This document shows positions 10,378 through 58,230 of a stretch of DNA of 64,000 nucleotides, piece after piece. Origin of the DNA: Isurus oxyrinchus (lineage: Eukaryota); the NCBI GenBank assembly GCA_026770705.1, contig JANJGN010000034.1:5642001-5706000 (forward strand), written 5' to 3'. Made by a program: the position numbers and the translations under genes. Each line of letters opens with the position of its first letter. Position 1 is the stretch's first letter. The notes under the pieces were generated by a model. It made no database searches. It was not told the DNA's origin and saw only the letters and a program-made list of their open reading frames with translations.

Positions 10378-10404
10378 ATCCTAACAAACTGTTCGAAGAC
10401 TTGG
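10378..10404 (+). CDS. Microexon E1 (27 nt, short A type): xPNKLFEDL
   Basis: tttaatttattttag|ATCCTAACAAACTGTTCGAAGACTTGG|gtaagc; ends TTGG|gtaagca like E11. Confidence 0.8.
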
Positions 10405-13400
10405 GTAAGCAAAATGCGTTTTTAAAAGCATTTTTGTTCGATTATCCCCAATGGCATGCTCAAAACAGAATAATTTGGCTGGAGTCATTAAGCTAGGTGG
10501 GACATTGATAACAAAAAACATGACGTTTGCTACGCGTGAACAGAAGCCTGATTGCTGATGCGATTTACTCTGGCGTATTATGGCATTCAGCAGATTGTGG
10601 CATTGATTTAACCCAGACACTGCCAGATTTGATCGCCAGACTCCTGCCCACTCAATGGCCAAACTTGTAGGCCAGCGGAATTTACGTTCCCTTCAAAGTC
10701 AATGGGCCTTAGAGTGGGTCGCTGAATTTCATGGCCCATCATAGTTGCCAACTCCTTACTAATACGTAACTGAACAGGATTGGAAATGGCATGACCAACC
10801 TTCCCTGCTTAGCCAAACAAGTGCTAATTAATTGCAAAATCAAATGCATGCAAATTATTTGCTGGATAATGTCTTATCGTCCTGGCGGAAATTCTGGATG
10901 TTCCTTGGTAAGTTCTCATTTTGTTCTGTGCCTCAAAAGTCCTGCTGAGTGACGTGGCAAGTGCTTACTTCGATCTTACATTCAAAATAAGCAGCAAGTA
11001 ATTTAACACTAAGAAGAGTAATAATTGTTTAACTGAAATGGTGGCGAAACTATGGGACCCTTTACCTCAGAGATCTATGGAAGATCAATTATCGAGAATG
11101 TGCAAGAAAATCATCGATGGTTTTCTGCATGTTAATGAGGTTAAATGATATGGTGTTAGTGAGAACAATGGCATATGCTTTAGATGACATTCCATGATCT
11201 GTTCGTATGAGCAGGTGCGACATACTAAATGACCTTCTTCTGCACGTATTTTCAATTTTCCTGTGTTTTTGTGTTCCGATACAAAGGTTGATATGCAACC
11301 TGTACTTGCAAAGCACTGGGGCTGACATTAAGCATGAGTGGGAGACGGTGTAGAGACACACAGTACGAGAAAAGTCCCGACAGGGCGTAGGGGGAACAAA
11401 CAGTGAGGGGGTTTTGTCAAAGCACCAAATCTTTAGAATATATCCACGAGTTAACCTTCTTTTCAGCTGACCAGCTTAACAAATTGCTCTTTGAAATCAT
11501 TGACTATATGCACCGACAAATGCATAACCAAAATCAGAATATCCGTGGCTGTGAAGTTGACATTGGCTGAGCTGCTGTGCATTCTGTTTCGTTCAGGTTG
11601 ATTCAGGAGTTATAAACCGATTGGAGCAGTTTGCCCTTCACTGCTGCCTAACAAAGAATAATAGCGTTTTCAGCTTCCACTCAATTTCTCTTCGCAAATA
11701 GCAGCAAGTGAAGTGAACGTGATGGGTTACAGGAATAAAACGATTAGCCATTTGTCTGTGGGACAGTATACAATGATTGCATTTGAATCGCATTATCTGG
11801 ATCTCGTATGAATTTTGCCATTTTCCAGAACTGTTGGCACTTGGACTAAAACCACGGACAGATAATATGGCAGGTCACTGCCAGTAATGTTGTTGGCAGT
11901 CATGATTTGAGACTACAGTAGGAAATGACTGTCTCTTCTTTATTGCACTAAGATGCGCAACAGCTATCCAGCTATGGTACATCTCATGTCTCAGGCCTAG
12001 ACTCTCATTCCCAACAGCAACAGATTGACAAGTGAAGTCACATGGCCAGGTGTTATCTTACAGATCAGATGAGGACAGAACTCAAGCAATGCCCGCTTTG
12101 ATACATCCATAATAGATACATGCGTGAGACATAGGAACTGTTCTTAACATTCTGCCTGCTGCTCTGCGTGCTGTACAGCAGTTACGTTCTTAGTGACAGG
12201 CCCACGTCATCCCTGATGTACTTACAAGCTGATGAATAGGAGGACGATAAGGAATATATTTAGGAATTTGATAAAGGTGGGCAGAATTCAGGTCACCCTA
12301 TTTTTTTCCAAAAAATGATTTTTTGCACTGGCTATTACCCTATCCCCAATTTCCCATTTGACCGATAACGTGCCTGTCCTCTTAACTTTCCTTTTTCAGT
12401 GACAATCACAATAATGTGTTTCTATCTGAACAGCCTGGACATGCTTTCCATTGCACATTGATAAATTAACTCTCCAGCAGCGCATACATAATAATATTTC
12501 CATGAATAATTATTACCAACAGTACTAATCGAATATGTGCTTATACTTATGCCTCCTTCCTCTGTATTTACATCCCCTGGTTAAAGCCACAGTTTCAGTG
12601 CCTAAAGCATGCTTGTGGCTTTGCTGCTGAATTGAATGGAGATGCCCTCGAAGAGAGATCTAGAAATTTTCAAAGCCTGGAAAGTTCAAAGTAGTTTGCA
12701 GCATGACGGTTTTTTTCTGTCTGAGGTGGATGACTGATAGGAAATACTACGGGAGTGGTTGGTCTCGAAAGACAGATTTTTAATTCCCGAAATTTGGCAA
12801 CAGATTCCTACACCATGGAGAAACTGCCTTATTGGGCAGACCTATAGTGCACTACTGGAGGCCAGCTTCCTGGAATTTAACTTTGCTTCGGAATCCCTTA
12901 TGCACACTGCTCTCCACATCCATGATCAAATCAATCTGAGCTTCAGTGGCAGTGAAGATTGCACAATGTCAGTCTGACCCTCCACTGCAGCCCACATACG
13001 AATTTTAGAAGCTGCTTGTGTTCTAACCGAATCAGACACATGCTATAATAGACACTGCATCATGATTGTTCCAAATGCAAGTGTTCCAATCTCTCCATCC
13101 TGTGTATGTTCTGTTCACCTCCATGCGCCTGGACCTTTATTGTTATTAGTATTAATATGACTATTATTATTAGTATTGTTATTATTATTATCCTGCGTTT
13201 CCCTCTTCTTCTTCTTCTTCTTCCTTTTTTTCTTCTTCCACCTCTTCTTCTCTCCATCTTGTTCTTCTTCATGTTCTTCTTCTTCTTGTAAATCTTCTCC
13301 ATCTTCTTTTTCCTCTTCCTCCTCACTTTTTCCAGTCCATGAAACTCTTATTTGATTCCTTCTCTACATTGACATCAGGAGGTAATATTTTCCCCATTGA

Positions 13401-16400
13401 CTCACCACCTAAGGTAGCATTAACTTAAAAATGAAATCGACACTCATATTCCATTGTCACTTATTTGTGTTGAACCCTTTTGAACGTGTTTGTTTTTTTG
13501 CAAAAAGCATATTTATTATCAAACGCTCCATGGATATTTTTATTGGCAATATTAATTAATCTCTTTTTAGCAAAAGCGCAGTTGGACAAGGACAAGGGTA
13601 ATGTGATGCATGACTATATGTTATATTCATATGTGCTAATTGTAACATTGTTAAGATATTCTTGAATAGACCTTATTTTTCTGACATAGGCACATCATTT
13701 AATTTACGATTGATGTTTACTATGGTCGGGAAAGGAAACTGGGTAGAATCATTTCAGGGCTCTGAAGAAGTGTCATGCAGACTCGGAAGGCTAACTCTGT
13801 CTCTCTGTCCATAGATGCTGCTCGGCCTGCTGAGTTTTTCCAGCATTAACTCTTCTGTTCCATTAAAATGTAAACTTAATTTCAGTATTAATGGAACATC
13901 AATTCTGTTGGAGCATTTCATAGTGGATTAATACTAAATCTTGTATGGCCATCGGTGCCTCTCGTTTTGCGATTTACCAAATAATTCAGCTGTTAAAAAA
14001 AAGATGAATGTCTTCATTATGACCATAGTTTATAGGCAAAACTTACTGCACTTTTTAATTACATGAGTACGGGCATATCCGGACATTTGCCATCACTGAA
14101 GCTGGTGACATCCTGTGAACGGGAAAAAAAAAGAAGTTATTACATAATGTAAACAAGTGAACATACATACAAAAACTGAAGTAAATGCAATGCAAATTAT
14201 ATTTTTCCCGTTATCCGGAGGGATATCCATATAGATGGTATAGTGCCTAAATTTGTGCAATCGATTGAGACAGTTGGCAAATGAGATCTTATGTAATTAT
14301 CGCATATTAAAGCAATTTGAAATTGTATTAAAACAGTGTATTAGCATAACAGAATACATGTAGATCCCAGCGGATATTATGTGTAGAGAAGCTGTAAGGG
14401 ACATGTTATAACTATGCTGCAGAAAATGCAGATAAGTACTTTATTTGCAAAAAATGATGAATGAATTCAGTTAGGTGGAAGAAATGGAGCAGTGGCGTTT
14501 TTTCTCCTCAAAAACAGGTTTATTAAGGGGAGAGTTAAGAAAGCAATACAGAACCACTAATGCTTCAGTGATATAAACAATTACTTGTTTCTCCTATGGC
14601 AGAATGACGTAAGCTCCTGTGGGGTGGAGTGTGGGAGAGGGTTGGTGGTGGAGGTTTTACGTTAATTGCCAATGGGTCGAGAGGCGAACGGCTAAAGCTT
14701 TCTCATGACAAGTGGCTGTTTTCTCCATGGAACCATTGCCTGAAATACTTCTGGATATAGAATCAATGAGGAATTTCACTATCTGGCTGGAAAGGGACCT
14801 GAAAAGAGATCTGTAGCATTAGACATTAAAGTATGGGAGAGTGGTTAAAATTGGCTTTTTTTTTCAAATGGACAGCAGAAACACGGTGGCTTAAATTCAT
14901 GTTGAGCCACACAGCATTGACTTGATGCTTAGTTTAAAGAGAAAGAGTATTAAATTCGGGGTGTAAATGGAGAACAAATCCATTTGGGATGACACGCATC
15001 CCAGATGATATTGGTCACCCGATATTTTGTTTCCAGGATATCACACAGCAGCCCAGTGAAAATGCTTAATGAAATGGGCTGAGGGCGAAATTTAACTTTC
15101 TGCTGGGGTGATGCAAATCATGGTGTCCGGAATGGGCTCTGCTTTGCAAATCCTGTATTACCGACGCAAAAATAAGATAACATAAGATGGGTTGCATTGA
15201 GGTACCGACGACCTTATCACTCATGATACACAACTGTAATAATATCTCCCAAGATTTAGCCTATTCAATTTCCAATACGCACTGTTTGCCTTCTCGAATT
15301 TTGCTTTTCAGAAATACGCAAATTGAAAGAGGCATTGAAAGATGCGGGTGAGAATAATTATCGAGTGAGCTCATATCGTCACCAGACGTAAACATAACAT
15401 TGACGATTGCGAAATCGCACTTACACTGCAATGGTGATTTTTGCTTAGTACATAAAATACGTTTTGAAAAATCTGCAATCAATTCTATGCATCTTAGAAT
15501 CACATTCCCAGTAATTTTAATGGTAATATCACTAGCGGGAGGCGACAGATTTAGCATCAGCTACCACACCATTTCATTGAAGTTTAACAAGCCTGACTTA
15601 AGTCAACAAAATAAAAATCAAGCCATGCATATTTTGAAAATGAAAAAAAAAACAACTTAGAATTGAAAAAAATTAGTACCTCTGGTGTAACTGTTCGGTA
15701 CAGTTGTTTAATATCCAGAAAAATTGTCTTCCATCCCATGCATCTCGCACGATGAGGGTATATTTATATGTCATTAGGCCCACTCCTATGAATGCATAGC
15801 GTGAAACACTTACACACATATAAAATATATAATTGTTCATCGTTGAGATTTTTGTGTTGGGAAAGTGCCCCCAGTCTATCCACACTTCCCAGGCATTTTT
15901 TAGTAACTCATTTTAGTGTTTCTCCTTTTAATTCCTATTGCGTTTTTTCACCGATTCTAAAACATAAACCATCAATGGACATCTCAAGATAGACCCTTCC
16001 CTATCCTATTTGCTTTCTACTGGGACCCATCCTCCCTTCTCGCCCAGGTACACCCATCCTCCCTTCTCGCCCAAGTACACCATAGCCATTTGCTCTAATT
16101 TTGTCCATTGTGTGCTTATTATCCTTCAGCACAGATATATGCTTTATGTCCTGGTCAGAGAATTCAGGTCACGCTAAGCAGTGCTCTATCGGAACATTTT
16201 TCATATGCATTGTTGCATTGCCATTAACTTGGAAGGTTTGAAAAAACACCTTTGTTTATATCACTTTGTTATTCTCACATTGTTATGTAAGGCAGAGCTT
16301 CTGAATGGAATCAGAGGAAATCGAACAGACCAATGAAAATTACTTGGATCTTAATTGGATAGACTATTCGCCTCAGAATAGATGTGTTAAGGGGGAGATA

Positions 16401-19400
16401 TAAGGGCTACATTTAAGGAACTACAGGCGTTCTGTAGAGCAAATACTGCAACACTGTTTATTCCCAAAAGCAGAAGCATGGTGTAAACCAAAGAATACAT
16501 ATTGAAGGCAGTTAGCAAAACGATTCAGGTAATATTGATTTATTTTAAGTGTCAAACTTATTTTAATGAACCAGGCCTCACTGGCTAAAGGGGCAGTGAA
16601 ACAACTTAACCATGAGCATCTAAAATGTCATTTGATACTTAATAGTAAGAAACACATTTAGAAGGCCATGGAAAGAGAACAGATACTAAGCGAGTAACTG
16701 GATAGCTTTTTTCACAGAGTACGGTGATCTGAATGGCCTTTGGCTGTTTTCCCATTCCATGATGCAATGATAATCAACACGTAACTTATTTCTTATAGAG
16801 GAAAAGCTGCGTGCATGCAAAGAAGGTAATGAAAAACTATTGTTTTTTGTGATAAAATCAAATACTGTGGATGGTGGAAAACTGAAACCGTATAAACAAT
16901 TGCCTGAAAAACTAAGCAGGCCTGACGACACCTATGGAGAGACAGCTAGACCCAGAACATTAACTCTGGCTTTCTCTCGAAAGATGCTGTTAGACGTGCA
17001 AGTTTTTTTTCCAGAAATATTTTTGGTTAGCTTTTGAACAGAAAAATGTATTATTGTATACAATAAGAAACATGGTTACTTGTAATAAGCAATAGTTCTA
17101 CTTGTGCTGTTGTAAATATTCTGATTTCCAATTAAGTTGTGCGTTATCTGTTCATGAAAAACAGCTCCACATTAATTTTCTCATTGATATTATTTCTTTC
17201 AAGTTTTATTTTAAAGCAGCACCTCCCATACTTGGATATAGTGAATAACCCAACCACCCGCCAGTTCTTTCCGGAGTCGAGAACTCAGAAGAGCAGACCC
17301 TCTGCGTGGAGTAATTACTCATAATCTCCGTATTAACTGGGCCATCCGTTATTCTGAAATTATGACCACTTATTCAGAAACACCCACAAGGGAAATATCT
17401 TCTCAAGGTGGAACTTGTCATGCCCCAGAAAAGCTGATATGGTTAACTAAGTTTACTTTTCCAGCTTTTTGATACATTACTGTTATAAAGAGTTGAACAC
17501 TGACCATATGCATCTGTACGATGCTTGTTTTGCTTTGAAGCCAATTATCTTTAATCACTGCATATTTTTTCTCTCAATTAGAACTGGATGGCTACGCAAA
17601 AACTGACGGTGGGTAGAATGATACCACATAATCAGTGAGACCACAGGGCTACTAGCAAATAACTGCACATAGTTTCAGCTCAGTTTGCTTGCCGGGGTAT
17701 TTTTACTAAGCTGCTGATTTCCCGTTTTTGAAAGAAGAAGCAAGCGACAAACTAAATTTGGAATAGACCAATTCACGGAATGAAGATTTAAAGAATTGTT
17801 TTCAGTTGAAAAGTGGCAAGGGGCATTTGCACAACACAAGTATCAAATAATGACCATCTCCTACAAGAGAAAATGTAATCATCTATCTCTGGCATTCATT
17901 GGAATTACTATATCTGGACTCCCCAGTTATTAACATTTTATGCATAACAATTGACTCTATTGCACTTCTGTGCTACTAATTGTCCCTCTATCTATGAAAA
18001 GCAAACAATCGGTAATATGCACTACTCCTGCATTTACAGAATATTAACACATAAAGTTCACATTTGTCAAATCGAAGATGGGTTTTGAAGAATAAGCCAC
18101 ATTTTATGTGCCACAGGAAAAAATATGGAATCCGACTACACACTTATGGTCATGTTTATCAGAAACATGCGTAGAAGTGGAAATATTCACAAGCACATCT
18201 TATGTAGTAAATTACATTTACTCGTTTTGAAATCGATATGGATTGGTTTCCCTGCCAGTCTAGTAAATTTGTTATTAGCTGTAGTGTTATGTATTCATTG
18301 GATCTGTGATCAAAGGTATGGTCATTATTATTGTCCATCTTCAATTGCAATTGTAAATATGTGGGTAAGTCGTTTTTTGCACGGATGCAATTAATGTCAC
18401 TGATGTTTGCACACAGTGTTGTTTTGAATGGCTGCAATCAGTGTCATTTATGTTCACACACAGTGCTGTTTTGGATGAGGTGCCATGATTTTGCCACCGT
18501 GGCATTGAACGAGCAGGGATTTAGTTTCCAGTCAGGGTGGTGTGTGCCTTAAAAGTGACCTCATAGGTGTTGATATCTCTCAAACTTCCTTGCCGCATAT
18601 TTGGAAGATGCTTTTTAAGACATTTTCCCAAGTCAATACAATGCATATTCGACATTCTACATCTTTTTTCATTGTTTCACAGTGTTGGAGGAATGAACAT
18701 TCCAGGTTCTAGATGGAATGTTAATAAATCAGGCTGTTTTTACAAATAGATATCAAATTACTTGATTGCTGCTGGAGCAGCCCTGAGATAGAGAACTGTA
18801 CATTGTCCCATTGCATTCTTGAAATTAGCCATATAAACTCGGGCGGCTTTAAGGGGTTAAGTGCTGAGTTAATCACTACATAATTGCTACCCTGATAGTA
18901 GCTCTTTTAGCCATTATATAAATGGCTGCTCCAACGATATTTCTACTCAATGGTTGCCCACAGAATACCGTTGATTTCACTGATGCTATTAACGTTGAAT
19001 GTCGAGAAGAGATGCTTAGGTTCAACAGTAATGGGTGCTGTCATTGCCTGGCAATTGAACGGCGGATTCGGTAACTACAATTTAATTGTTTAAGATTATT
19101 GAAAGAACAGGTATGTCAGATGGAGGCAGCGTATTTCCTCTCAGTTGGAACTTGATCGCAAGGCAAAATTATCTTCAATTTAAATCGTAACTAGTGAGGA
19201 CTGCTGCCAGACAACTCAACGTTGTAGATAGGGCATTAGAAATCTGGAGTGATGTCTCCAAAATTAAAAACACAGCAAAAAAAAAACGAAAATTGAATTT
19301 TGAAACACAAATCAAAAAAAAGTATTAAGACTTACAAAAAGTCAATTTGTGGGAAAAAAATTAAGTGCTCTTCTGAATTAAACAGATTTCCCCTGAGCAC

Positions 19401-46400: not shown

Positions 46401-49400
46401 GTAAATAAAAGAACGTGCAATTGGAGACATGCGGAGAAACGTTTGTTTATAGTCACGCATCGTGTTTAAGATGTTAATTGGGCTGGTTGATAACGTGGCG
46501 AAAGGATTAATTCTTCGTATTCAAGAGGAAACTGTATTGCTTTCTCAAAAACCTCTACCTCTAACCCTAACCCAAACTTGCAGCTTTTCATGTGGAGAAT
46601 GCGATTAAGTCACTTGTTCTTTCGGAAAGCCGGCACATTGAATTGCATCCTTCTGTGCATGTGTCAATTCTGATATACTTATAAACCTGTGCTATACAAT
46701 GACGGGTTTTTTTTTAAATATAACTTGAGCATTCAATGAAAAATGTAAGTAATCACATTTGTGCCACGAAACATGGACCTGAAGCCCTATCTCACTCAGA
46801 AAGCCGACACATGCGCAGTTTATCTCGCTGCTGATGCGCTACCTCCACCGCCTTTGTACCGGAACCTCAGGCTTTCCGCTTCTCGCTCTGCACTCGATCC
46901 AAGCCGTCTACTCGTTGCTACATACGCCTGTGAGCTTGCTGCTGTGCGCTGTTCACTCTTCACTCATTCCGCCCACGCTCACCAGAGTTTGCGACGCGCC
47001 ACACATTCTTTCGTCCACATCCTGCTATTCGATCAGGTGGGCTGGCGAAAGGGACTGTGGTGGCAGGCAAACGATTGGAAAGGGCTTGAGTTGCGAGTGG
47101 TAGATCGATGCGAATATAACAAAAATTTCAGGATAGGGTAGAAGCCGCAAAGTGAGTTGCAAAGAGAGCAGGAAGATGTGGGATGCTTCAGGGAATGGAA
47201 AGGATGTGGATTGGAATTGTTAAGGAAGGCGGACAAGTTGGGAGCCACGTGTCATTGTGAATGGGAGTGGCAAGCACCAGGGTAGCAAGAACGGGAGGGA
47301 GCGTGGTTTATTTGTAAACTGTGGGGTTTATGATGAAGGCAACGCCCTAGGACGTCGTTGAATGACAGAGAACCGGGGAGGGACAAATTTCACAACTTTC
47401 ACAGGCACCATGAGCATAACTCCCAATACCTGTGCTGTGGGATTCCAGCCAATCCACCAACCGATTGAAAGAATTGAATCTGAACTAATCAGCTCATTTA
47501 ATTTCCATCTGTGCCAACAAGAGCAGCCACGCATAAGAGGTGCTCCAAAATGAATATTCAACCGGACTAGAAGGCAGAAGACCGGCCTTTAATTGGATCC
47601 ATTCATTTCGCACAAAAGGCTCCCTTAGTTCAACAGCTAAGGTCGAAATCACGCTATGCCGAATGACTCCAGCAGCATGTTCAATCCGCAGAGAAGTTCA
47701 GCTAGTTCCTGCAGAGGGCGCCATTTTTATTTCTCATAACCATATCGTGCTTTAAATCATGATTGTCAAATATCGGGAAAAGCAAAGACACGTTTCTACT
47801 GAGCAAAGCTCATATAACTGAGCCCGAACGGGAGAAATAATTTCTAGCTATGAGGCTCCCATGCCCCCTTCCAGCTACCACCCCGCCTATTTCATTTCCA
47901 GTTTTGATGCAACATCAAAATTGTCACAGCCTTTTTTCCACATTTTGATTCTCCGATTCAAATGATGTTGCTCCTATGGAATTATATTATTATTATTATT
48001 TTTGCAGAGGATAAGTTGAACCAGTGTTTGAAAGGTGAATCATTTGAAAATATTCCTTCAGATTTTTGTTTAACAATACTTCCATAGTTTTGATTGAGGG
48101 ATTCGCTCTGGCAATTTAATGTTCATGGCATGGAGGCATTAAAATACATAGAGCAAAAGTTACATTCTCCTGAATTAGTATGAAGTAGGGAAGGGAAATC
48201 AGCATAAATTGACTAATTTAACTAAACTGTCTGATTTTGAGGAAGTGTCTGCAAGTGATTGTAAGGATATTCTAGTGCCCTTCTTCAGTTCTCTGACTGA
48301 AGGAAGTTCTGACCCACAGCACTACCATGCATAGGGCGAGTAGACGAGTCCCGGAAGCACCGCATCTGAATCCGGGCTCGAAAACTGTGCTGTTGGGTCG
48401 AAATTACTCCAGACCGGCCATTCAACCACAAGCAGGTGAGAGAGTTTAACGTAAATGTCAAAACAAGAAAAAACATTAGCGTTTTATTTAAAAAAAAACA
48501 TTAAATGCCTGGTGTGTTTAGGGCCTGGAATAACCTATGAGGGCCCCTGTTGCAGTCAGATTCTATCATGGATTCGAAAAGTGTATTGTCAGATGGTAAA
48601 TAATATGTAACGTTGAGGGAGGGAAATGGGCCAGTGGTTTGAGGTATGTTGGTTTTTGCTGAGAGACAGCGCTGGAATGTCGGCTGAAAGGCCTATTTGT
48701 TTTAGAAACACATGAATCTATGGTTTTACTTAATTCTTTATTCCGACCACTTCTTTCCCTGATCCTCAGCACTGGACGATAAATGCAAAACCGATGGTAA
48801 GTAGCCTAAATGTAGAATCAATTGGAATGCCATCCTAACCTGTTTCTCTTATGCTTCATATTTGTGTGAATTAGTGATTGCAGCACATGGCTCCGAAGAG
48901 ATTGTGAACAATTCTGTCATGAACATGAGTCATAAAATAATAGCAATGTTACAAATTAAAATGCAGTGCTGAAGCAGACCAAAAGGCCAAAAATATCGAT
49001 GCTGTTGCTTAAGACGCACGCAAAATTCTTTGCAGCACCCTTCACTAACTCAATCATTATATCGATAAATTGCTTTCTCCATCATCTGCCGATGACAAGT
49101 GCAAACATTATGCATTTAACTATCTTTTTTAAACATCTCAAAAACTTGGAAATTTAAGTCACACCCCAACCATTGCATTTTATGCTTCTGGAAGAAACCT
49201 TAAAGGTTTAACAATATATCATGACAGCGAGTATCACTCAGTTATAGTCCTCTTCACATACGCAATGCCCACATAACCTTTAGTGCCTCAGCGTAATTTA
49301 ATAACATGCCATTAAAAATGGCTCAGGTTAGTGAAATTTGTATAAAATGAAAATATATCTTCTTCATGAATTTATTTATTTTCAAAAGCAATTCCCTCGA

Positions 49401-52400
49401 AATAATGTCCAGTACTTTTGGTTCTTCGCACGTTCTAACTCGTGTGGCTCCATTTATTGACCTGTGGACCTGTAATCTTCGTTCACTTTGCTTTTCTAAT
49501 CCATTTAAACATGAAATTTCCAGAGGGCATGTTGCCTCATTAATATTCCTACTGAAATGTGTTACGTGGAACGTATCTATATTGAAATTGAAGTATTATT
49601 TTCATGGTCACTTTGCCAGTAATTGGATGACACCTATTAATTTAACTTAATATAATTCCATATTAACTACAGATCAAATTTTATGCCATTTGCGAAATTT
49701 ATATTCCTTTACTGTACTCTCGAGTTTAATTGCTTTATATTGAAGCTGTACAGCTATGGAGCAAGCACTGCCCCTTGTGGATAATCATTTCCCACCAGTT
49801 CCCAATGCCAGTAAAGAACATTACCGCCTATTTGCCGTTTTATGTTCTTGAGACAGCTTGTCCTCCAGCCCTCATTGTCAGTAGTGGCGTTGTATATTCT
49901 CCCATTAGTCCAAATAACTTGTTATTTCATTGATTATCCATGATACTTCATTCTGGATTGCCAGTTTAAATGAATAGATTTGATTGTGCGATTTGTTGGG
50001 TTTGGGGTGGGGGAGAAAGTCCATCCTCACTGTACCATGGACTTGTCTAATTTCACGCCATTTGGATATCACCTGACGCCATTAAATTGCTAATGCTATC
50101 TTACATCGGACGTATTAAGCAACTGAATCTTTAGCCGAGAGAAAATCTTCTGTCATAATTCTGAGTTGCACTTCCCCGTTCATTCTAGATCATCGCCTGG
50201 TTGATGCAAAGGCTGGTAAGAAAGTGGTTTCCAATATCTTATTCGAACCCTTATATATTTGGCCCATTGTCTTGCAATATTATTAGAACTGTACATTCAG
50301 TGACTCTAACCCGCCAATGCACCTCAAGCTGTGTCTTTACTGGTTTCCTATGTGCCTCTCTCATTGTTTAAGAGCTGCTAGAATTATAGCTTTCAAAGGC
50401 CCATATTTCTGTAGCTTCTGAAGAAGCCTTAATTGATCATTACAACTTGTGATCCAATTAAAGCACTATGATATCTCGCTTGAAAAATAAATGACTGGAA
50501 TGAACTTCAAAGGCACTGATCAACTGTGAGCTAATTGAAGAAGCGTCCTCAGCGGACTGATCGACTGATCGACTTACTGCTGCTGGCGAACTAACTCAGC
50601 CGTTTTGAATGTTCAAGAATATAACTCAAGCGTTGTAATTGTGCGAAACGCTGCATGAAAGATCAGTCCATATTCAAATTCCATTTGTGCCCAGAGCCAT
50701 TTCTAAATGCTAGCGTTACATTGCTAAAAATGGTTGAAAAATACAATTTAGCAGTCCACCCCGGTTTGCATTTACAATGAAATCAACTGGTGGAAGCGGA
50801 AAATATTCTAACCATCTTTCTCTTCATGTTTCATGGAAAAGGTTTACAGCCGAATACCAAAGGATAATTTCGGATGCATGATGAATAGTATTTCATCGTT
50901 GCCCCAGGCTCATATTAAGCAAGATTTACGATTCATTCCAGGGTATTTTAAACACAATCCATTCAAAGAAGCATGCATTGTAGCAGGAAACTTTTCTTCT
51001 CCCCAGAAATTCTGCTGGCTCTTCCGAAACTTACAATCAATTGGTCGTGCTCCGCTTCCTGACCTTGCATTTTCTTCCAGTCGTCAAAGCATGTCAAATT
51101 AATTTATTAGGTTCGCCATTGAAAGCGCTTGGACCACCCTTTCAGTCAATAAATTGCAAATCTTAATAATTTGTTAACTGAATAAAACACGCCTCGTCCC
51201 ATGTTCCTTAACCCATTATCTCGCAGGAAGTCACATTGCTTCATTATTGGAAACCTATCCTTTCCTAATCTATCAAACACGTGACGCCTTCAAACATATT
51301 TATTTTATCTTCGTTCTAACGAGAACAAACGCCTTTAAAGGCAGTCCTAGTAATAATAATAATCATTATCATCATTATTATCTGCAGAGCTTGCAAAGCT
51401 GAAAAAGGATCTGAAAGATAAAGGTAAACAAATCAATGATTAGCTGATTTTTTTTAAAGAGTTTTTTTTTACCTTCAGACATTTTCATTGAAAGCGTTCT
51501 AAACTAAAAAAGGCATCGATGTGCAACGGTGGAAGCGTTATAGCTATCAAAGTCACAGCAAAGTAAAATAGTGTGGGGTTGGGGGAGCGGGGAGTCTAAT
51601 CTGCATAACTGTCATTATACGGTTGCTACCTCCATTCACCGGAATGACATACAGAGGCAAAGATCAAATTATCAGTACAGGTTCAACGATTTCTTTTTTT
51701 TTTGGCTTTCTTTTGTTTGTAGGAAATCAAATGGTTATTTCCATGATCCGTTCAGGATCATAATTGATAGGTTGGTATAGCCGCTGGTCGCGGAGAACAG
51801 AACTGGCTGACGCAATTTGAGACCTAATACATTCAGGCATGGTATCAGGAAGCAGTGCATCACACAGAGAGCAGTAGAAGACTGAAGATCTTTGCTGCTA
51901 AACATGTTAAAGCAGGGTTTTTTGACTATTTGCAAATGTAGACTCATAATAAAAAAACAGGGAAGTGATGCTGAGAAATTATCAACCATGATAGAATTGA
52001 AAGTATCGACACCATCGACTGATTGGCGTGTGCCTGTTTACCTGTTCCTAAGTACGACACTTGCAGCGTCAGATTGTAGATATTGAATAGAATCTGGCCT
52101 GTCCTCTACCTATTATTGGTTCGCCATTATAAAATTAGACGTCCGAAAAGCATTTGTTTCAAACTGCCAAATTTATTGAGCAAGAATAAGATACATTAAA
52201 TAAAGACAATTCCATTTTCACTAAGTTCAGTTTGGCGATATATGCATTATTACTGTAAAACATCACAGTTGCTATTCAGACCGCTTTCATTTGGTATTAA
52301 TTAAATTATCAGATCAGAAACATCAACGAGCATGCAATGGTGAGTATACAAAACAAATGCTCACCTCACTAGTCTTTTGGGCATATAATGTGTCTTTCAC

Positions 52401-55400
52401 CCATCAGGGTAGGAGTGAATGTTGGCTGGCGGGTCACCTTGCCCCATGTCCAGCTAATCTGTTATACCACGCCCACACTTTCCGCCACCACCGGCAACAC
52501 TTTGTACTACAGCGGACATCTAATTCAATTAAATTGAATCAATTTTCAGACCTCCAGTGAAGCGTAGCTGCATATCTTTAATTCCACACATTAATTTTTC
52601 ATCACAGTGGATTTTTCTAAGTGAGTGCACGTTAGGTGCTCTTTGAGAGTGGTTTGAACTACTCTGCTATGTTTCTGTTTATTTTGAAGAGATCGAAGAG
52701 CTGCTTGAAAACACAGGTAAGCAACTGGATATTTGAGACGAATATTGTAAAGTTAACTTATGCTTTATCTATATAGGTTTAGCAGCCATTCTACAAAGCA
52801 AAGGGAGAAGCGGCCCTATGCGATAAGACAGACAACATTAAGGAAAAAAGCTTTATTGTTGCTTTGCCTTTTGAATTCCATTGAAATTCTGAGAAACAAG
52901 TTTTGGTGGGTGTGCACATTCCTGGGGGTGAGGTGGCGTAAATTCAAAATGTTCATTCATTTCCTTTGTATATAAACGGTACTGTATCTCCCCTGTTAGA
53001 TACAGTTAGCATGTCTGATAGGAATAAAGTGACAAAGGTTAAAAGCAGATGGCGACTATATTACCGAAATGGTCAAAATGTTACAAAACCATTTTCAGAA
53101 AACATGTCCATAAACGGAACATTTTCTACATCACAAGCTAAACCCGTATTTATATCCACATCAGTACTAATATTAAACTTGAAATCTATGTTATTAATAA
53201 AGTAAGGTTTTATTTTAATTAATCTACAATGTGACGGCGTCACTAAATGTCATGGTAATTCTCCATGCCTAATTTTTCTGGAGTGTGTGACGTTGAGATG
53301 AATTCTTGAATACATCTGACTGGCGAGCTAGGACATATCGGATGGCAGCTGATATTTAGCCACTCTGCTGTTTACCTGGAGTGATAAAATGGTTAGGTCA
53401 CATCACGATGATAATTTATTTCCATAACTTACGTTTGATAAAAGACGGGACTTTTGCAACAGTGGGTGGTTTCATGATCATCTTTGCAGGTATTCTCCTT
53501 TGAACTTACCTTTCACAGATTCTGCGATTGGATTGGAATTAATGCCTCTGGATCATTAAGGAAATCAAAAAATGGCATAGATCACACCAGGAACAGACGG
53601 TGCATTCAGTCTGCACCGCCACTGAATCCAATCGTGGCTCATCGATCTCGCCTCTATCTATCACACACCCCGACATGGTTGGGTTCCCTGGGAGATCAAG
53701 TATAAAAGCAATCATAAATGTGCATATTTTCAAAAATGGAAATAAATTCCCCTTGGGATAAAAATGTCGATAAGCCGCTGAATTAATCGATTTCCATCCA
53801 TGTCCAACCCAAACGATTGAAAGTTAAACCTATGGTTGCATCTCCATTTGAAGATTCCGCAGAGAGGTGAAACAAACTGTAGGTGTTTACATGAGTCTCT
53901 TTATGAATAGCCCAGCAACATGACCTTAATTATATCACACCACGATTTACCTGATATAAAATCAGTAATTGCAATAAAGCAAACTAATTGCAAACTTGTC
54001 CACATGTGGGCGTACCTAGTTCCTTTAGCAGACATACCAAGGTTCCATGGGTAAATTCGAATTACGGAAGAATAGAATCAAGAATGAGAGATAGTGAGGG
54101 AAGGAAGGCAGTTCTTTTGTCAAATAGATATTAAGTGTGCAAGAATTGTCATAAATCAGTGGAAATATAAAACAGATTTATTGTCCAGAGCGAGGTGCAG
54201 CAAACTAATGTGTCCACCAGAATTCAAAAAGCAGGCCAAAGGAACTCGAACTGACTCGGGTCAACGGGGGATATCACTGCAAATAAACAAAAGAAGCATC
54301 GATTTCGAGCCAGTGCATACCTCTAAATTTGGAAAAGACACTGGAACAGTTACAATGTTGGTTTTACAGTATTTCACTTTTACAATTCGAGACTCATAGT
54401 GGGGCAGAAAAAAAAATGGGCCAGGCCATTTTCGGTTACACTGAAGCCTCTGTCGAGGCACAGTCAGACCATTTAGTTAGCAGATAACTTACAATTCTGA
54501 CCGGGAGAGAACGATTTTCCTCACTGGAAGCTACCCAACATCAAATTAATCAAAGTGAGGAAAACCTAGCTTTCTTGCGGAGTTATCAGACTCTGTCCTT
54601 AACGACCTTCTGATGAGTCTGAAGATTCTGGGTCGGAACAGGTTGATTGATCGGCAATGCAAAGTCAAGCAAAAGCGTCAGTCAGTCTCTGGCAAAGCGA
54701 CAACACAATTTGCATGGTCAGCTGAACCTGGAGTCTACGAAATGTAATTTAGTTCCAGACGCAAGCATTTTTAAAAATAGCGGCAATTACGGAAATAACG
54801 AATTTGAGGTTTGGGGTCGGAGGGGGGTGAGAGTGGGAGATACAGAGGTTAGGAAATAGCCGATATAAAATCTTGTAAAGATTTTATGAAGAGTTAACGA
54901 AGGTAGGGTTGGAATTAATGACTCATGCTTTGCGGTTTGATTCAAAAGGAGAATTGTTGCTGTATAGCTTAGCCTGAACAATTAAATGAATTGAAATGCC
55001 AGAACTATAGGGAAAGGGAGACTTGCTTCATGGAACACAATACAGTGGGATTAAAGGATATCCCAGGAAGTCTTTGGAAGTTCTAGGTAGGACTAATTCT
55101 TCCAAAGCAAAGCACAGGGGATTAAATTAATATACGCACTAAATACGATCTGATTGACACCCTGATCTGTCTCAGGAGGCTGCAAAATCTATCCATGTAT
55201 TCTTGATTCTAGCTCTAAAAATAATCAATAGGCGTAAACAAAAACAGAATTAGCTGGAAAAACTCAGCAGGTCTGGCAGCATCGGCGGAGAAGAAAAGAG
55301 TTGACGTTTCGAGTCCTCATGACCCTTCGACAGAACTTGATTGTCGAAGGGTCATGAGGACTCGAAACGTCAACTCTTTTCTTCTCCGCCAATGCTGCCA

Positions 55401-55752
55401 GACCTGCTGAGTTTTTCCAGGTAATTCTGTTTTTGTTTTGGATTTCCAGCATCCGCAGTTTTCTTTGTTTTAATCAATAGGCGTAGTCTGTTTAAATTAA
55501 TCGGAAGTGTTAAATGTAAATGCATTTTGATATCATCGCAGTTTTCACCTGGGACGGTTTTGCACATTGAATTCAATTGAAATCGCGTTTCTTTCAAAAT
55601 GTTAAAAGCAACTTGTCTTTCAAACTTCAAATCAATCAATCGTGTTTTGAATCGGTTTACTGTGGAGTTCATGCGAACATGAGCTTAATTGTGTCACATT
55701 ATTAAAGTGATTTTATACATTGCAGCAAGCAAATTGTTCGACAAAGAAAGAG
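10378..55752 (+). CDS. Multi-microexon gene (5'-partial) encoding an ~197-aa Lys/Glu/Leu-rich heptad coiled coil; architecture reminiscent of butyrophilin/chicken B-G heptad-exon tails, identity unresolved
   Basis: About 20 short exons, each AG...GT, each a multiple of 3 and phase 1-1, all on + strand. They concatenate without stops into a 3-4 hydrophobic repeat, and paralogous exons are similar to each other. Confidence 0.88.
13136..13325. repeat. Compound (TTA)n / (TCT)n microsatellite
   Basis: Directly visible; explains the low-complexity ORFs 13060-13326 and 13106-13291. Confidence 0.95.
13571..13597 (+). CDS. Microexon E2 (27 nt, B type): AKAQLDKDK
   Basis: ctctttttag|CAAAAGCGCAGTTGGACAAGGACAAGG|gtaatg; paralog of E12. 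Confidence 0.88.
13758..13860 (+). mobile_element. Penelope-like 3' end with decayed hammerhead motif
   Basis: ctgaagaagtgtcatgcagactcggaaggctaactctg...agatgctgctcggcctgctgagtttttccagca. Confidence 0.7.
14330..14920 (+). mobile_element. Decayed CR1 3' fragment
   Basis: ttctcctcaaaaacagg...aaggggagagtta...ggaaccattgcctgaaa; typical CR1 C-terminal/3' pattern. Confidence 0.5.
15312..15347 (+). CDS. Microexon E3 (36 nt, A type): EIRKLKEALKDA
   Basis: ttgcttttcag|AAATACGCAAATTGAAAGAGGCATTGAAAGATGCGG|gtgaga; 25/36 nt identical to E13. Confidence 0.92.
16025..16078. repeat. 27-bp tandem duplication
   Basis: acccatcctcccttctcgcccaggtac followed by acccatcctcccttctcgcccaagtac (1 mismatch). Confidence 0.9.
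16799..16825 (+). CDS. Microexon E4 (27 nt, B type): EEKLRACKE
   Basis: cttatttcttatag|AGGAAAAGCTGCGTGCATGCAAAGAAG|gtaatg. Confidence 0.88.
17582..17608 (+). CDS. Microexon E5 (27 nt, short A type): ELDGYAKTD
   Basis: ttttttctctcaattag|AACTGGATGGCTACGCAAAAACTGACG|gtgggt. Confidence 0.75.
18560..19060 (-). mobile_element. Decayed LINE fragment (3085 family, reverse)
   Basis: ttgctgctggagcag...gtgctgagttaatcac...gtagctcttttagccatta...atggttgcccacag...aacgttgaatgtcgagaagagatg is the reverse complement of the family pattern. Confidence 0.55.
20040..20380 (-). mobile_element. Penelope-like element end (older copy)
   Basis: Reverse-complement similarity to 57880-58230 (gttaacatttcgagtc, ctggtttaaag, ggtgttgaaggtgctgatattatcta). 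Confidence 0.7.
21522..21548 (+). CDS. Microexon E6 (27 nt, B type): DQQLKDTKA
   Basis: ttcctctgctag|ACCAACAGTTGAAAGACACAAAAGCAG|gtgaatcatt; same intron start as E16. Confidence 0.85.
21852..21985. repeat. Degenerate (TG)n/(GA)n microsatellite
   Basis: Directly visible. Confidence 0.9.
22755..22945. mobile_element. Old degenerate Penelope-like inverted end
   Basis: aatgctggaaattctcaacag...cagcaacatttgtggagagag ... ctctctcctccagatatgctgcc...tttttgcttcta. Confidence 0.55.
26180..28330. mobile_element. Decayed CR1 fragments (endonuclease on +, ~26180-26680; RT on -, ~26700-28330)
   Basis: PIRDENILDLVL-like segment at ~26580; reverse RT-region remnants downstream. Confidence 0.5.
30008..30043 (+). 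CDS. Microexon E7 (36 nt, A type): ELKKLKEILRNK
   Basis: gatttttttttag|AATTAAAGAAGCTCAAAGAGATATTGAGAAATAAAG|gttaaa (weak donor); paralog of E17. Confidence 0.85.
30570..31010 (-). mobile_element. Deu-domain SINE (SacSINE1/AmnSINE1-like), decayed
   Basis: gtagtcacttttgtaat, ataattggccagggc, tatgccatgg, gtcagcacgtcc, gtgtcagtttagaatt resemble the reverse strand of the recalled DeuSINE consensus. Confidence 0.55.
31443..31469 (+). CDS. Microexon E8 (27 nt, B type): DGDLDKKNK
   Basis: cattattcttag|ATGGCGACTTGGATAAAAAAAATAAAG|gtgagtaaaca. Confidence 0.85.
31700..31738 (+). CDS. Tentative microexon E9 (39 nt, A type): ELEGKRKDVTDGQ
   Basis: tttgtttgttgactgcag|AATTAGAGGGG...GGACAAA|gttgga. Good acceptor and A-type start (AATTAGAG vs AATTAAAG in E7), in the expected slot, but the donor is weak. 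Confidence 0.45.
32961..32981 (+). CDS. Tentative microexon E10 (21 nt, shortened B type): (K/E)LLNNKE
   Basis: ctgcctacaaacag|AGCTCTTGAATAACAAGGAAG|gtaact; donor gtaac shared with its positional paralog E20. Confidence 0.55.
34959..34985 (+). CDS. Microexon E11 (27 nt, short A type): ELEDLAKKL
   Basis: gctaac (branch-like)...gactttcag|AACTTGAGGATCTTGCCAAGAAATTGG|gtaagc. Confidence 0.9.
36400..40610 (+). mobile_element. Cluster of decayed CR1 ORF2 pieces
   Basis: RT motifs in broken frames: ANVTLWFKK (~37220), QYGFINGKSCATNLIE (~37370), IKFTVDTK (~37730), HRGFMK (~40170). Confidence 0.75.
39360..39975 (+). mobile_element. LINE 3' fragment (3085 family) nested inside CR1 RT
   Basis: gggattctgcggcgagtaactcacc, gatggaatactctc, caaggacaaagc, caccaccttctcaaag, A-rich tail; the CR1 reading continues on both sides. 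Confidence 0.8.
40890..40916 (+). CDS. Microexon E12 (27 nt, B type): AEAVLAKDK
   Basis: tgtttctttccag|CTGAAGCAGTGCTGGCAAAAGATAAAG|gtagat. Confidence 0.88.
41240..43030 (+). mobile_element. Several CR1 3'-end fragments
   Basis: ggccatttaggactgag...ttctttactcaaaa; tggcagatcaaatttaatatagagaag (WQIKFNIEK); ggcccactcctgc tails. Confidence 0.6.
43491..43526 (+). CDS. Microexon E13 (36 nt, A type): EIRKLKNALEDK
   Basis: tcttctttttccctctag|AAATTCGCAAATTGAAGAATGCTTTGGAAGACAAAT|gtgagg. Confidence 0.92.
44531..44557 (+). CDS. Microexon E14 (27 nt, B type): SKELKECEQ
   Basis: atcccattacag|CTAAGGAGCTGAAGGAATGTGAACAAG|gtacat. Confidence 0.88.
45670..45770 (+). mobile_element. Penelope-like 3' end, ending ~50 bp upstream of exon E15
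   Basis: ttctgagaagagtcacacaggtcc...ccacagatgctgctggatctgctgagtttttcagcatttcctgttt. Confidence 0.7.
45819..45854 (+). CDS. Microexon E15 (36 nt, A type): ERNKTRKYLKET
   Basis: atttctacacag|AACGGAACAAGACGAGGAAATATCTGAAAGAAACAG|gtgaat. Confidence 0.85.
48008..48034 (+). CDS. Microexon E16 (27 nt, B type): EDKLNQCLK
   Basis: attatttttgcag|AGGATAAGTTGAACCAGTGTTTGAAAG|gtgaatcatt. Confidence 0.9.
49300..51340 (-). mobile_element. Decayed CR1 pieces, reverse strand
   Basis: Reverse-complement CR1 endonuclease and 3' patterns (tctaacgagaacaaac, ttcgccattgaaag, caagctgtgtctttac). Confidence 0.45.
51388..51423 (+). CDS. Microexon E17 (36 nt, A type): ELAKLKKDLKDK
   Basis: ttattatctgcag|AGCTTGCAAAGCTGAAAAAGGATCTGAAAGATAAAG|gtaaac. 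Confidence 0.92.
52313..52339 (+). CDS. Microexon E18 (27 nt, B type): DQKHQRACN
   Basis: aattatcag|ATCAGAAACATCAACGAGCATGCAATG|gtgagtataca; intron start nearly identical to E8's. Confidence 0.82.
52690..52716 (+). CDS. Microexon E19 (27 nt, short A type): EIEELLENT
   Basis: tttctgtttattttgaag|AGATCGAAGAGCTGCTTGAAAACACAG|gtaagc. Confidence 0.85.
53519..53559 (+). CDS. Candidate alternative terminal exon: DSAIGLELMPLDH*
   Basis: Pyrimidine-rich acceptor cttacctttcacag; phase-1 reading ends at TAA 53557-53559; AATAAA at 53741-53746. It lies upstream of E20, so it could only be an alternative end. Confidence 0.3.
55237..55470. mobile_element. Young Penelope-like inverted-repeat insertion with perfect 15-bp TSD
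   Basis: ~96-bp arms around loop gaacttgat (55333-55341), 2 mismatches seen; TSD taatcaataggcgta at 55222-55236 and 55471-55485. Confidence 0.9.
55288..55340 (-). ncRNA. Minimal type-I hammerhead-like motif with variant core (CUGUCGA...GAAA CG UC)
   Basis: Minus strand reads aagtt-CTGTCGA-a-gggtc-atgag-gactc-GAAA-cg-TC-aactc: stem I AGUU/AACU, stem II GGGUC/GACUC, palindromic stem III; A6 replaced by U. Confidence 0.55.
55726..55752 (+). CDS. Microexon E20 (27 nt, B type): ASKLFDKER
   Basis: ttttatacattgcag|CAAGCAAATTGTTCGACAAAGAAAGAG|gtaacc. Confidence 0.8.
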
Positions 55753-56569
55753 GTAACCACTCAACATGTCTGCATGTACCTCTGTTTTAATTGTACAATG
55801 CTATGTGCCCCTGCTGTATTGCACTTCTCTTGTGAAATGTATTGGTAGAAATGGGTCCGAAACCATAGGACAGAAAAGGGGATATTGATTCAGCATTCCT
55901 TTATAAGTCTCATTTCAGTTTGGCACATTTTACAATCCGTATTATTCTTTGACGGGATGAGGAGGTCTTTGGCTATGCCAACATTCTTGGCCCATCGAAA
56001 ATTGCCTTTGGGAAGCTGGAAATGAACTACTCTTTGAACCGCCACAAATCAATGTGGTGTTGGGAAACAAACATTGCTACGAAGGTAGGAGTTCCAGGAC
56101 ATTGACCCTATTGGTGTAAGTGAAGTGAAGCACCTGGTAGGGAATATTACAACTTTTTTGTATATTAATGTCCTTATTGCACCAATTCCCCTGACACATT
56201 CCAACCCCCTAAACGACTCAGATAATCATGTTATAAGTAACAGAATCTGATTGTAGCCAGATGTCGATAGAGTTTTCTAGTCTCACTATTTACTATAAGG
56301 TGTTAATTGAGCGTTTATAATGACAACTGTCAATATAAGCTTGTCATTTGCATTCAGCAGAAAAAAAAAACTCATCCGAACCACTTCAAAGCTTGCCAGT
56401 TTTATTAAGTGTACATTTAGGAATGCCATCAATGAGTCGAACTTAAGTGTGCGATGTAGTTTTCATGAATACAATCGGGGAAGTGGCGGCAAAATGATTG
56501 TATGTTGTGTGAGATCAGGAAGAAACATGTTGCATACCATTTGCACATTGTTCTTTTGCAATTATTAGC

Positions 56570-58039: not shown

Positions 58040-58230
58040 CGCACCCCCCCTCCCCCCACCCCCCCACACACACACCTTAAACCAGCTTATATTTCAACTC
58101 TTTCTTGGACTCGAACTCAAGTTCTGTCAAAGGGTCATGAGGACTCGAAACGTCAACTCTTTTCTTCTCCGCCGATGCTGCCAGACCTGCTGAGTTTTTC
58201 TAGGTGATTCTGTTTTTGTTTTTGTTTTTT
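57800..58230 (+). mobile_element. Penelope-like element 3' region with (CT)n/C tract and hammerhead-like end
   Basis: Ends gttctgtcaaagggtcatgaggactcgaaacgtcaactc...gctgagtttttctaggtgattctgtttttg, near-identical to the 55342-55440 arm. Confidence 0.85.

Follow-up and report, generated by a model that had tools for sequence, protein, structure and literature searches.

A Predicted 1.55-Mb Microexon Gene for a Coiled-Coil Rod with a Terminal B30.2 Domain in Isurus oxyrinchus

Microexons at the Locus

A stretch of 64,000 nucleotides (nt) from the 4.98-Gb genome of Isurus oxyrinchus (assembly GCA_026770705.1, contig JANJGN010000034.1, in the following C34, positions 5,642,001-5,706,000; this stretch is called the window) carries on its forward strand a series of very short exons, which a sequence-only reading had described as a hidden gene at 10378-55752 composed of about 20 microexons of 21-39 nt and encoding a long coiled coil. 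These microexons are now confirmed as real and bear the marks of selected exons. The window lies wholly inside a far larger array, here called gene A, which ends in a B30.2 exon and is one of five B30.2 genes located side by side on C34, the others being designated B, 0, -1, and -2.

Exons were sought as AG-[n]-GT segments in phase 1 without stop codons, ranked by a generic splice score and then by a trained weight matrix. Such segments of 21, 27, or 36 nt are present on the forward strand from 10378 to 55752. With the generic score 82 candidates were obtained on the forward strand, eleven of them with 27 nt and six with 36 nt, as compared to 65 on the reverse strand with only one of each size. 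A held-out matrix, for which all training exons were taken from outside the window, called 19 exons on the forward and one on the reverse strand at a threshold of 12. Twenty resampled windows gave a mean of 0.4 calls and a maximum of 2, so that shuffled sequence, named earlier as a possible source of equally many segments, does not account for the exons.

The firm set in the window consists of 20 exons with 579 nt in total, fourteen of 27 nt, five of 36 nt, and one of 21 nt. In the following the held-out score is given in brackets. Exons of 27 nt are located at 10378-10404 (13.0), 13571-13597 (23.2), 17582-17608 (20.4), 21522-21548 (15.2), 31443-31469 (20.8), 34959-34985 (15.9), 40890-40916 (21.7), 52690-52716 (13.3), and 55726-55752 (25.4), and a cysteine-bearing type of the same length at 16799-16825 (24.2), 44531-44557 (21.7), 48008-48034 (24.9), and 48770-48796 (15.0). 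A weaker 27-nt exon at 50189-50215 was missed by the held-out matrix (matrix score 9.0) and has good splice sites (generic score 11.4) and fits the module described below. The 36-nt exons are found at 15312-15347 (48.2), 30008-30043 (27.7), 43491-43526 (37.1), 45819-45854 (19.2), and 51388-51423 (38.9), and the 21-nt exon at 32961-32981 (12.9). Exon 43491-43526 ends in T and must therefore join the exon at 44531, which starts with CT; both are kept in the corresponding copy in gene B (L002). A weak 27-nt candidate at 31287-31313 (matrix score 8.9) was likewise missed by the held-out matrix; the intron between it and the next exon measures 129 nt, as compared to 102-148 nt for the same exon pair elsewhere in gene A. 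When this candidate is joined to the firm set, the 21 exons yield 606 nt and 201 amino acids with no stop codon. The exon list behind the 591 nt of the sequence-only reading was not given, which makes an exact reproduction of that total impossible. Within the chain of gene A the window exons carry the numbers 167-186 and correspond to about residues 1,590-1,783. Exon 55726-55752 has one listed difference in a related organism, 55750 G>A, which changes arginine to lysine.

Three further candidates were rejected. The segment 43852-43878 follows an exon ending in T, which creates a TAA at the join, and is also uncalled in the paralogous copy L002. The segment 31700-31738, at 39 nt the only one of that length with this composition, has a low-scoring donor (-3.0) and is absent from the calls of the matrix, which has no 39-nt class. 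The segment 36911-36937 has weak sites and is absent from all matrix calls including the held-out ones. The phase and the strand given in the sequence-only reading were borne out.

Several observations concern the surroundings of the window exons. Exons 13571 and 40890 resemble each other and are both preceded by simple TTA/TCT repeats (13137-13318 and 40760-40880); between exons 15312 and 43491 the similarity amounts to 75%. These pairs are perhaps the trace of an old duplication of about 28 kb, although blastn detected no duplication of introns at the nucleotide level inside the window. A short high-copy element is present at 8144-8378, 55236-55472, and 58117-58228 as inverted pairs, the one at 55236-55438 having 97-nt arms and a 9-nt spacer, and very high read depth was seen at 55.2-55.5 kb in all four runs aligned. 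Two runs labelled as RNA gave, among the matches listed for window positions 37001-56000, only repeat-derived pieces; one of them was flagged as probably DNA. For the terminal B30.2 exon of gene A, no RNA data set was listed as containing it. Both results are uninformative on expression.

Extent and Exon Chain of Gene A

The array continues beyond the window for about 780 kb upstream and about 750 kb downstream, all of it on the forward strand. Gene A spans C34 from about 4,848,400 to 6,396,339 (forward strand, about 1.55 Mb) and is bounded by the preceding B30.2 exon at 4,817,018 and by its own end at 6,396,339; the sequence-only reading had underestimated the size about twentyfold. Scanning covered 1,524,000 of the 1,560,000 bases of the region. 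The generic scan yielded 328 matches on the forward strand against 14 on the reverse strand. With the trained matrix 396 forward matches, none of them with a stop codon, stood against 4 reverse matches at a threshold of 15, and 427 against 11 at a threshold of 12, a whole-gene count which is partly circular due to training of the matrix on forward-strand matches and in which about 11 false calls are expected at the latter threshold.

The calls formed a chain of 438 exons, including 219 of 27 nt, 146 of 36 nt, 38 of 21 nt, and 26 of 15 nt. Two exons were dropped for stops at junctions, the window candidate 43852-43878 and one at C34 5,490,566. The final chain has 436 exons with 13,109 nt and 4,369 amino acids and contains one junction stop; since 2.8 such stops would be expected, their avoidance is uninformative. 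Allowing for false and missed calls, a number of about 400 exons or more can be defended. The introns have a median length of 1,865 nt, the longest stretch without a called exon measures 51.7 kb, and only 0.85% of gene A is coding. Between 5.88 and 6.16 Mb about ten tandem units of about 27 kb are found which are 77-83% identical including their introns and show the exon pattern 15-36-15-36-27-36-27-27-27-36-27-27-27. A LINE-like open reading frame (ORF; LINE, long interspersed nuclear element) was noticed by eye at 4,949,530. The whole 1.55-Mb array is likely to represent a single predicted gene of cartilaginous fish.

The Two Ends of Gene A

The terminal exon, a B30.2 (PRY-SPRY) exon, is located at C34 6,395,819-6,396,339 (L095:5819-6339; forward strand; Pfam SPRY, E 1.8e-13), about 700 kb past the last window exon. 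It is in phase 1 and codes for 172 amino acids followed by TAG, and its best sequence match in the PDB is the B30.2 domain of BTN3A1 (E 6.8e-20). The kinship with the butyrophilin and B-G gene layout, suspected from the window alone, is strengthened by this exon. Residues W350-H351-Y352 of BTN3A1 align to G-S-W in gene A, with serine opposite histidine 351. No B30.2 exon was found between 4,817,018 and 6,395,821 among the 150 scored of 455 candidates, nor by tblastn of the stretches covered.

At the 5' end a non-coding first exon with its donor at C34 4,848,606 (forward strand) is suggested by an element of about 400 bp which is conserved in genes 0, A, and B. Its conservation score is 112 against a random-window mean of 26; the random maximum was also 112, most likely the true site itself. 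An in-frame ATG is missing from this exon in both gene A and gene 0. The likely first coding exon is a phase-1 exon of 111 nt at C34 4,859,457-4,859,567 (forward strand) with a homologue in gene 0, and it has an in-frame ATG in both genes. No conserved coding exon was found between the two. The simplest model of the 5' end would therefore comprise a non-coding first exon and a translation start in the 111-nt exon without a signal peptide. Three candidates for a signal-peptide exon (4,834,548, 4,840,063, and 4,854,719) were rejected or found to be unsupported, since neither gene 0 nor gene B has conserved any of them as coding sequence; the best of them, 4,840,063, has lost its ATG and donor in gene B and is located upstream of the first-exon donor.

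Scans with Pfam for immunoglobulin (Ig), RING, and B-box domains in the flanks, limited to ORFs of at least 80-85 amino acids, gave no match in any of the 111 ORFs of at least 80 amino acids upstream of genes A and B and none in the 86 ORFs located where genes 0 and -1 face each other head to head. Inside gene A no large Ig-like exon was found among 7 strong candidates and no transmembrane-like exon. This type of Ig scan detected the IgV exon of a nectin-like neighbouring gene, but missed the broken copy of it in front of gene B. In a genome-wide V-set search one of the 150 listed matches fell on C34, at 13.07 Mb and away from gene A. Upstream inspection for signal, IgV, and transmembrane exons, proposed in the sequence-only reading, thus found none for gene A.

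The Predicted Rod

The predicted rod consists of 20% lysine, 14% leucine, 14% glutamate, and 10% aspartate, and contains 153 cysteines in 4,213 residues. Its hydrophobic periodicity peaks at 3.5 residues with a power of 0.98. When the order of the exons was shuffled 100 times, this power fell to 0.27 +/- 0.05 with a maximum of 0.38, from which it follows that the order of the exons, and not their content alone, maintains the hydrophobic seam. The coiled coil proposed earlier is upheld to the extent that a periodicity of the sequence can do so.

Each exon of the chain is a multiple of three in phase 1, and most exons end in G with the next one starting with AA, AG, AT, or AC, which is why the junction residue is mostly glutamate or aspartate (325 of 437 junctions). 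One heptad corresponds to 21 nt, three heptads to 36+27 nt, and 39 amino acids to 36+27+27+27 nt, so that duplication of these modules preserves the frame and, roughly, the hydrophobic seam. The 36+27 nt module first noticed in the window recurs along the chain of gene A. Exons of 36 nt most often encode leucine or isoleucine at position 2, cysteine or leucine at position 5, and leucine at positions 9 and 12, which, judged from these residues, is the a/d pattern of a coiled-coil core; cysteine occupies the core position 5 in 45% of the 146 exons of this class. The highest hydropathy over 19 residues is 0.54 and there is no transmembrane stretch in the rod. The chain contains 12 sequons for N-glycosylation as compared to 13.7 expected. 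A collagen, which also has exons in multiples of 9, was ruled out since only 100 of the 4,213 residues are glycine.

Cluster, Duplicates, and Selection

The five genes form a cluster of about 4.8 Mb. The B30.2 exons of the other four are located at 2.71 (reverse), 3.47 (reverse), 4.82 (forward), and 7.50 Mb (forward) of C34 and are 44-92% identical, and the exon has no internal stop in any of the five genes. The three neighbours which were read (B, 0, and -1, all by sampling, with gene -2 left out) each have a microexon array of their own on the matching strand. Gene 0 matches gene A in the first exon, the 111-nt exon, and the order of exon types.

In a comparison of gene A with sampled parts of gene B, both splice sites (AG and GT or GC) were preserved in 31 of 34 exon pairs, and exons were more conserved than introns (identity 0.906 against 0.817), with a ratio of nonsynonymous to synonymous substitution rates (dN/dS) of 0.45. 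The losses in gene B among these pairs amount to three splice sites, one gap, and one stop codon. Between the internal repeat units of gene A, 111 of 112 exon pairs, which are not independent of each other, keep their splice sites, with 90.2% identity for exons against 83.0% for introns and a dN/dS of 0.52. The exons are under purifying selection. A related organism has a collinear region at about 93% identity. For window positions 39727-41635 it has two contigs with about 93% and about 84% similarity, which would be expected if it possesses genes A and B both.

At C34 6,449,435-6,455,840 gene B jumps from the part corresponding to 4.850 Mb of gene A to that corresponding to 5.091 Mb. It is without the 111-nt exon and the first 40 or so exons of gene A, and its first called microexon has an in-frame ATG. 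Downstream of gene B, a gene resembling nectin/PVR is located at about 7,510,720-7,524,148 (forward strand; L184:720-3928, L164:4026-4148), with a signal-peptide exon, an intact IgV exon (best PDB matches nectin-2 and nectin-1), and a transmembrane-like exon; further related IgV exons occur at 13.07-13.73 Mb. A broken copy of its first two exons, with a TGA and frameshifts, is found at 6,421,428-6,424,690 (L098:1428-4690) and came along with the duplication from which gene B arose. The signal-peptide exon at 6,421,428 is part of this broken copy and was rejected as the start of gene B. Other features of the flanks are a weak 7tm_1 match below the cut-off (L097:6292-6582) and remnants of retroelement RNase H and integrase (L184:7349-9765). 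Apart from the cluster on C34, 138 of the 150 listed B30.2 matches fall on contig C21 at about 83-118 Mb, in a very large array of TRIM/butyrophilin type.

Relatives in Other Species

Homologues were searched among 1.84 billion representatives, the top of the list being crowded by multi-domain proteins. From ten high matches with a single stretch or two stretches which were examined, eight clusters carry chondrichthyan names (from skate, catshark, ray, basking shark, epaulette shark, and chimaera), one cluster has no name, and a TRIM-like protein of gar makes up the last; the assignment to cartilaginous fish made earlier agrees with this. The automatic names of these relatives include TRIM39-like, A33-like, butyrophilin-like, and nuclear-pore anchor-like, in line with the suspected mis-annotation. 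Among the relatives are XP_042192744 of Callorhinchus milii ("nuclear-pore anchor-like", 1,697 amino acids), XP_042191567 of the same species ("TRIM58"), XP_055510696 of Leucoraja ("TRIM69-like"), XP_038668997 and XP_038672308 of Scyliorhinus ("TRIM39-like"), XP_069775385 of Narcine ("A33-like"), P0164 of Scyliorhinus ("A33-like", 945 amino acids), and P0167 of Chiloscyllium (54% identical).

Like gene A, these models have a rod rich in lysine, glutamate, and leucine, and SPRY/PRY are the only clear Pfam domains in the seven models scanned, in which no RING, B-box, or Ig domain was found by Pfam, although the names imply TRIM or butyrophilin domains. The chain of gene A exceeds these models in length about 2.5- to 25-fold. 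Predicted RefSeq isoforms of the relatives are set apart from each other by clean blocks of 9, 6, or 7 amino acids, as single microexons would give. The motif ELxxCxxxL occurs 9 times in the chimaera model and 25 times in gene A, and the alignment of the two scores 58.5 bits as compared to about 20 for the four of ten shuffles which were printed. The chimaera model (P0035) also contains the basic motifs RRKKR, RPKR, and REKR, which resemble furin sites by eye and bear on a secreted nature of the protein.

Fourteen such B30.2 domains form one clade (SH-aLRT, a likelihood-ratio branch test, 100) apart from TRIM-type domains and from Ig-TM-type domains (TM, transmembrane) in a quick tree which was rooted at the midpoint and comprised 70 of 155 domains, the members of the clade having been chosen from the best matches. 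Ig-TM and TRIM rows are intermixed in this tree, which does not tell whether the group derives from butyrophilins or from TRIMs. A word search for longer relatives among the homologues returned none from 534 candidates for the single domain, and 3 from 7,992 and 5 from 7,994 for the profile. In the literature searched, which excluded most subscription journals and supplements, no paper on a chondrichthyan coiled-coil-B30.2 family was found.

Comparison with Known Systems

TRIM proteins with PRY/SPRY follow a RING-B-box-coiled-coil plan. Gene A shares with them a coiled coil, visible in gene A as periodicity, followed by PRY/SPRY. RING and B-box were not found among the ORFs of at least 80-85 amino acids in the flanks of genes A, B, 0, and -1, and gene A differs in its rod of about 4,200 amino acids made from microexons and in its location on C34, as opposed to the many B30.2 matches on C21. 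The guinea-pig enterophilins combine a long leucine zipper of tens of heptads with B30.2 and are not known to have a membrane part. These mammalian proteins have the same domain plan as gene A.

The gene layout of butyrophilins, as described in passages of PMC6790196, PMC4046983, PMC12841164, and PMC7348870, consists of very short heptad exons and a terminal B30.2 exon. Gene A shares the short heptad exons before a C-terminal B30.2 domain and has its best PDB matches in BTN3A, but has neither the IgV/IgC nor the transmembrane exons of butyrophilins by flank and internal scans, and possesses about 430 rod exons as compared to the four (exons 5-8) described for BTN3A3. Phosphoantigen sensing by BTN3A1 involves histidine 351 in the B30.2 pocket according to the account in PMC7348870; in gene A this position aligns to serine. 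Chicken B-G genes are described in PMC4046983 as encoding IgV and a transmembrane segment, followed by 13-36 exons of 21 or 24 nt and a 3' untranslated exon, and the same source reports that the tail of the B-G "zipper protein" regulates actin-myosin at the brush border. Both systems form a coiled coil from runs of tiny exons of varying number and occur in multigene clusters. Gene A has mostly 27-, 36-, and 15-nt exons (only 41 of 438 have 21 or 24 nt, 38 of them 21 nt), more than ten times as many exons, and a B30.2 end, and the B-G combination of signal peptide, single IgV, and transmembrane segment was not found for it. The micro-exon genes of Schistosoma, composed nearly entirely of short exons among long introns (bioRxiv 10.1101/2023.06.21.545858), encode unrelated secreted parasite proteins and are an analogy of gene layout only. 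Titin is cited in a passage of PMC3575840 as having the most exons (363), a number which gene A exceeds if one transcript uses all of its exons.

Gene A uses the heptad-exon/B30.2 layout of butyrophilins and B-G and is a member of neither, nor of the TRIM family. It appears to fit a chondrichthyan coiled-coil-B30.2 group characterized by the same B30.2 clade, a rod with the LxxC motif, and no other domain.

Interpretation

The best explanation, to which a probability of roughly 0.55 is assigned, is that gene A with its 400 or so microexons encodes a cytoplasmic coiled-coil rod without a membrane part, about 4,200 residues long and with a B30.2 head, likely to act as a tether or scaffold, the length of which is set by exon duplication and probably by exon skipping. 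A single transcript would start with the non-coding first exon and end with the B30.2 exon, with translation beginning in the 111-nt exon without a signal peptide. Two chains may dimerise and present paired B30.2 heads to a target, which would be bound in a way other than by the phosphoantigen pocket of BTN3A1, as suggested by the serine aligned to histidine 351. As no RING is present the protein could not ubiquitinate by itself, and the rod, with a predicted length of up to about 620 nm in the fully extended state, would instead hold or space partners, by analogy with what is reported for the tail of the chicken zipper protein. More tentative, and rather doubtful in its full extent, is the picture of a 1.55-Mb pre-mRNA with more than 400 microexons being spliced to a message of about 13 kb for a rod of about 500 kDa and about 600 nm with B30.2 heads, in which frame-keeping skipping yields graded rod lengths and which has served as a length-tunable B30.2 tether or sensor since before the split of chimaeras and sharks.

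Several findings weigh against the cytoplasmic rod. Besides the partial circularity of the whole-gene exon count, the chain contains its junction stop between 5,091,481 and 5,094,514, for which no bridging exon was found, a dN/dS near 0.5 means weak constraint, and the codon position of the ATG in the 111-nt exon differs between gene A and gene 0. The database models of the relatives have only 129-1,697 amino acids, and the 153 cysteines, many at core positions, together with the signal-peptide-like start of the skate model, fit a secreted protein.

Possible, though not probable, is that the exons are real and coding and yield mainly much shorter products by internal promoters, heavy skipping, or several transcription units, a rod of 4,400 amino acids being made rarely or never. 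Several of the short annotated relatives start mid-rod, isoform models differ by single short blocks, the full chain has its junction stop, and gene B is without the 4.850-5.091 Mb part of gene A, yet has kept exons and B30.2. Short database models are, however, also expected if aligners and predictors miss microexons, and the closure of the whole array by one B30.2 exon only, the dependence of the periodicity on the genomic order of exons, and the same start and order in gene 0 all argue for a long product.

Less probable is a secreted, disulfide-linked rod with a B30.2 head and an extracellular structural or defensive role, the signal-peptide exon having been missed. This part of the sequence-only reading, a secreted or stalk coiled coil, survives as a weak reading only, as no conserved signal-peptide exon was found. 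The cysteine content and the cysteines at core position 5 would suit it, the skate (XP_055510696) and chimaera (XP_042192744) models begin hydrophobic, and the first codons of the 111-nt exon encode a similar hydrophobic stretch in genes A and 0. On the other hand, the catshark and ray models have no hydrophobic start, sequons are not enriched, the first exon offers no in-frame ATG, no conserved coding exon was found to separate it from the 111-nt exon, and the best signal-like candidate, 4,840,063, is upstream of the first-exon donor and decayed in gene B.

The cytoplasmic tail of a B-G- or butyrophilin-like membrane receptor, also considered in the sequence-only reading, is very improbable and for gene A largely refuted: short heptad exons followed by B30.2 are the butyrophilin layout in the passages of PMC6790196 and PMC4046983, BTN3A gives the best PDB sequence matches, and gene B is closely preceded by an exon pair for a signal peptide and IgV, but the scans of gene A and its upstream region gave no Ig or transmembrane exon, the exon pair is the broken copy of the nectin/PVR-like neighbour at 7.51-7.52 Mb, and the B30.2 domain is separate from 13 Ig-TM-type B30.2 domains in the quick tree. 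Chance splice-like motifs, or a decaying pseudogene carried by segmental duplication, can hardly explain the array, for in spite of the dN/dS of 0.45-0.52 and the lesions in gene B, the strand bias and shuffle controls, the B30.2 exon free of internal stops in five genes, the conservation of exons about 9 points above that of introns, and the collinear region in the related organism speak against it.

The present analysis provides a nearly complete count of the exons, a non-coding first exon which is conserved, the periodicity which depends on exon order, and the recognition of the nearby IgV exon as part of a broken nectin-like copy. Gene A would be a natural test case for the way in which the spliceosome defines hundreds of exons of 15-36 nt among introns of about 2 kb. 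The relatives run under TRIM, butyrophilin, or nuclear-pore names, which bears on how many butyrophilins and TRIMs are counted in sharks. Here the butyrophilin-type tail of heptad exons and B30.2 exists without any receptor part, as a cluster of five genes over about 4.8 Mb.

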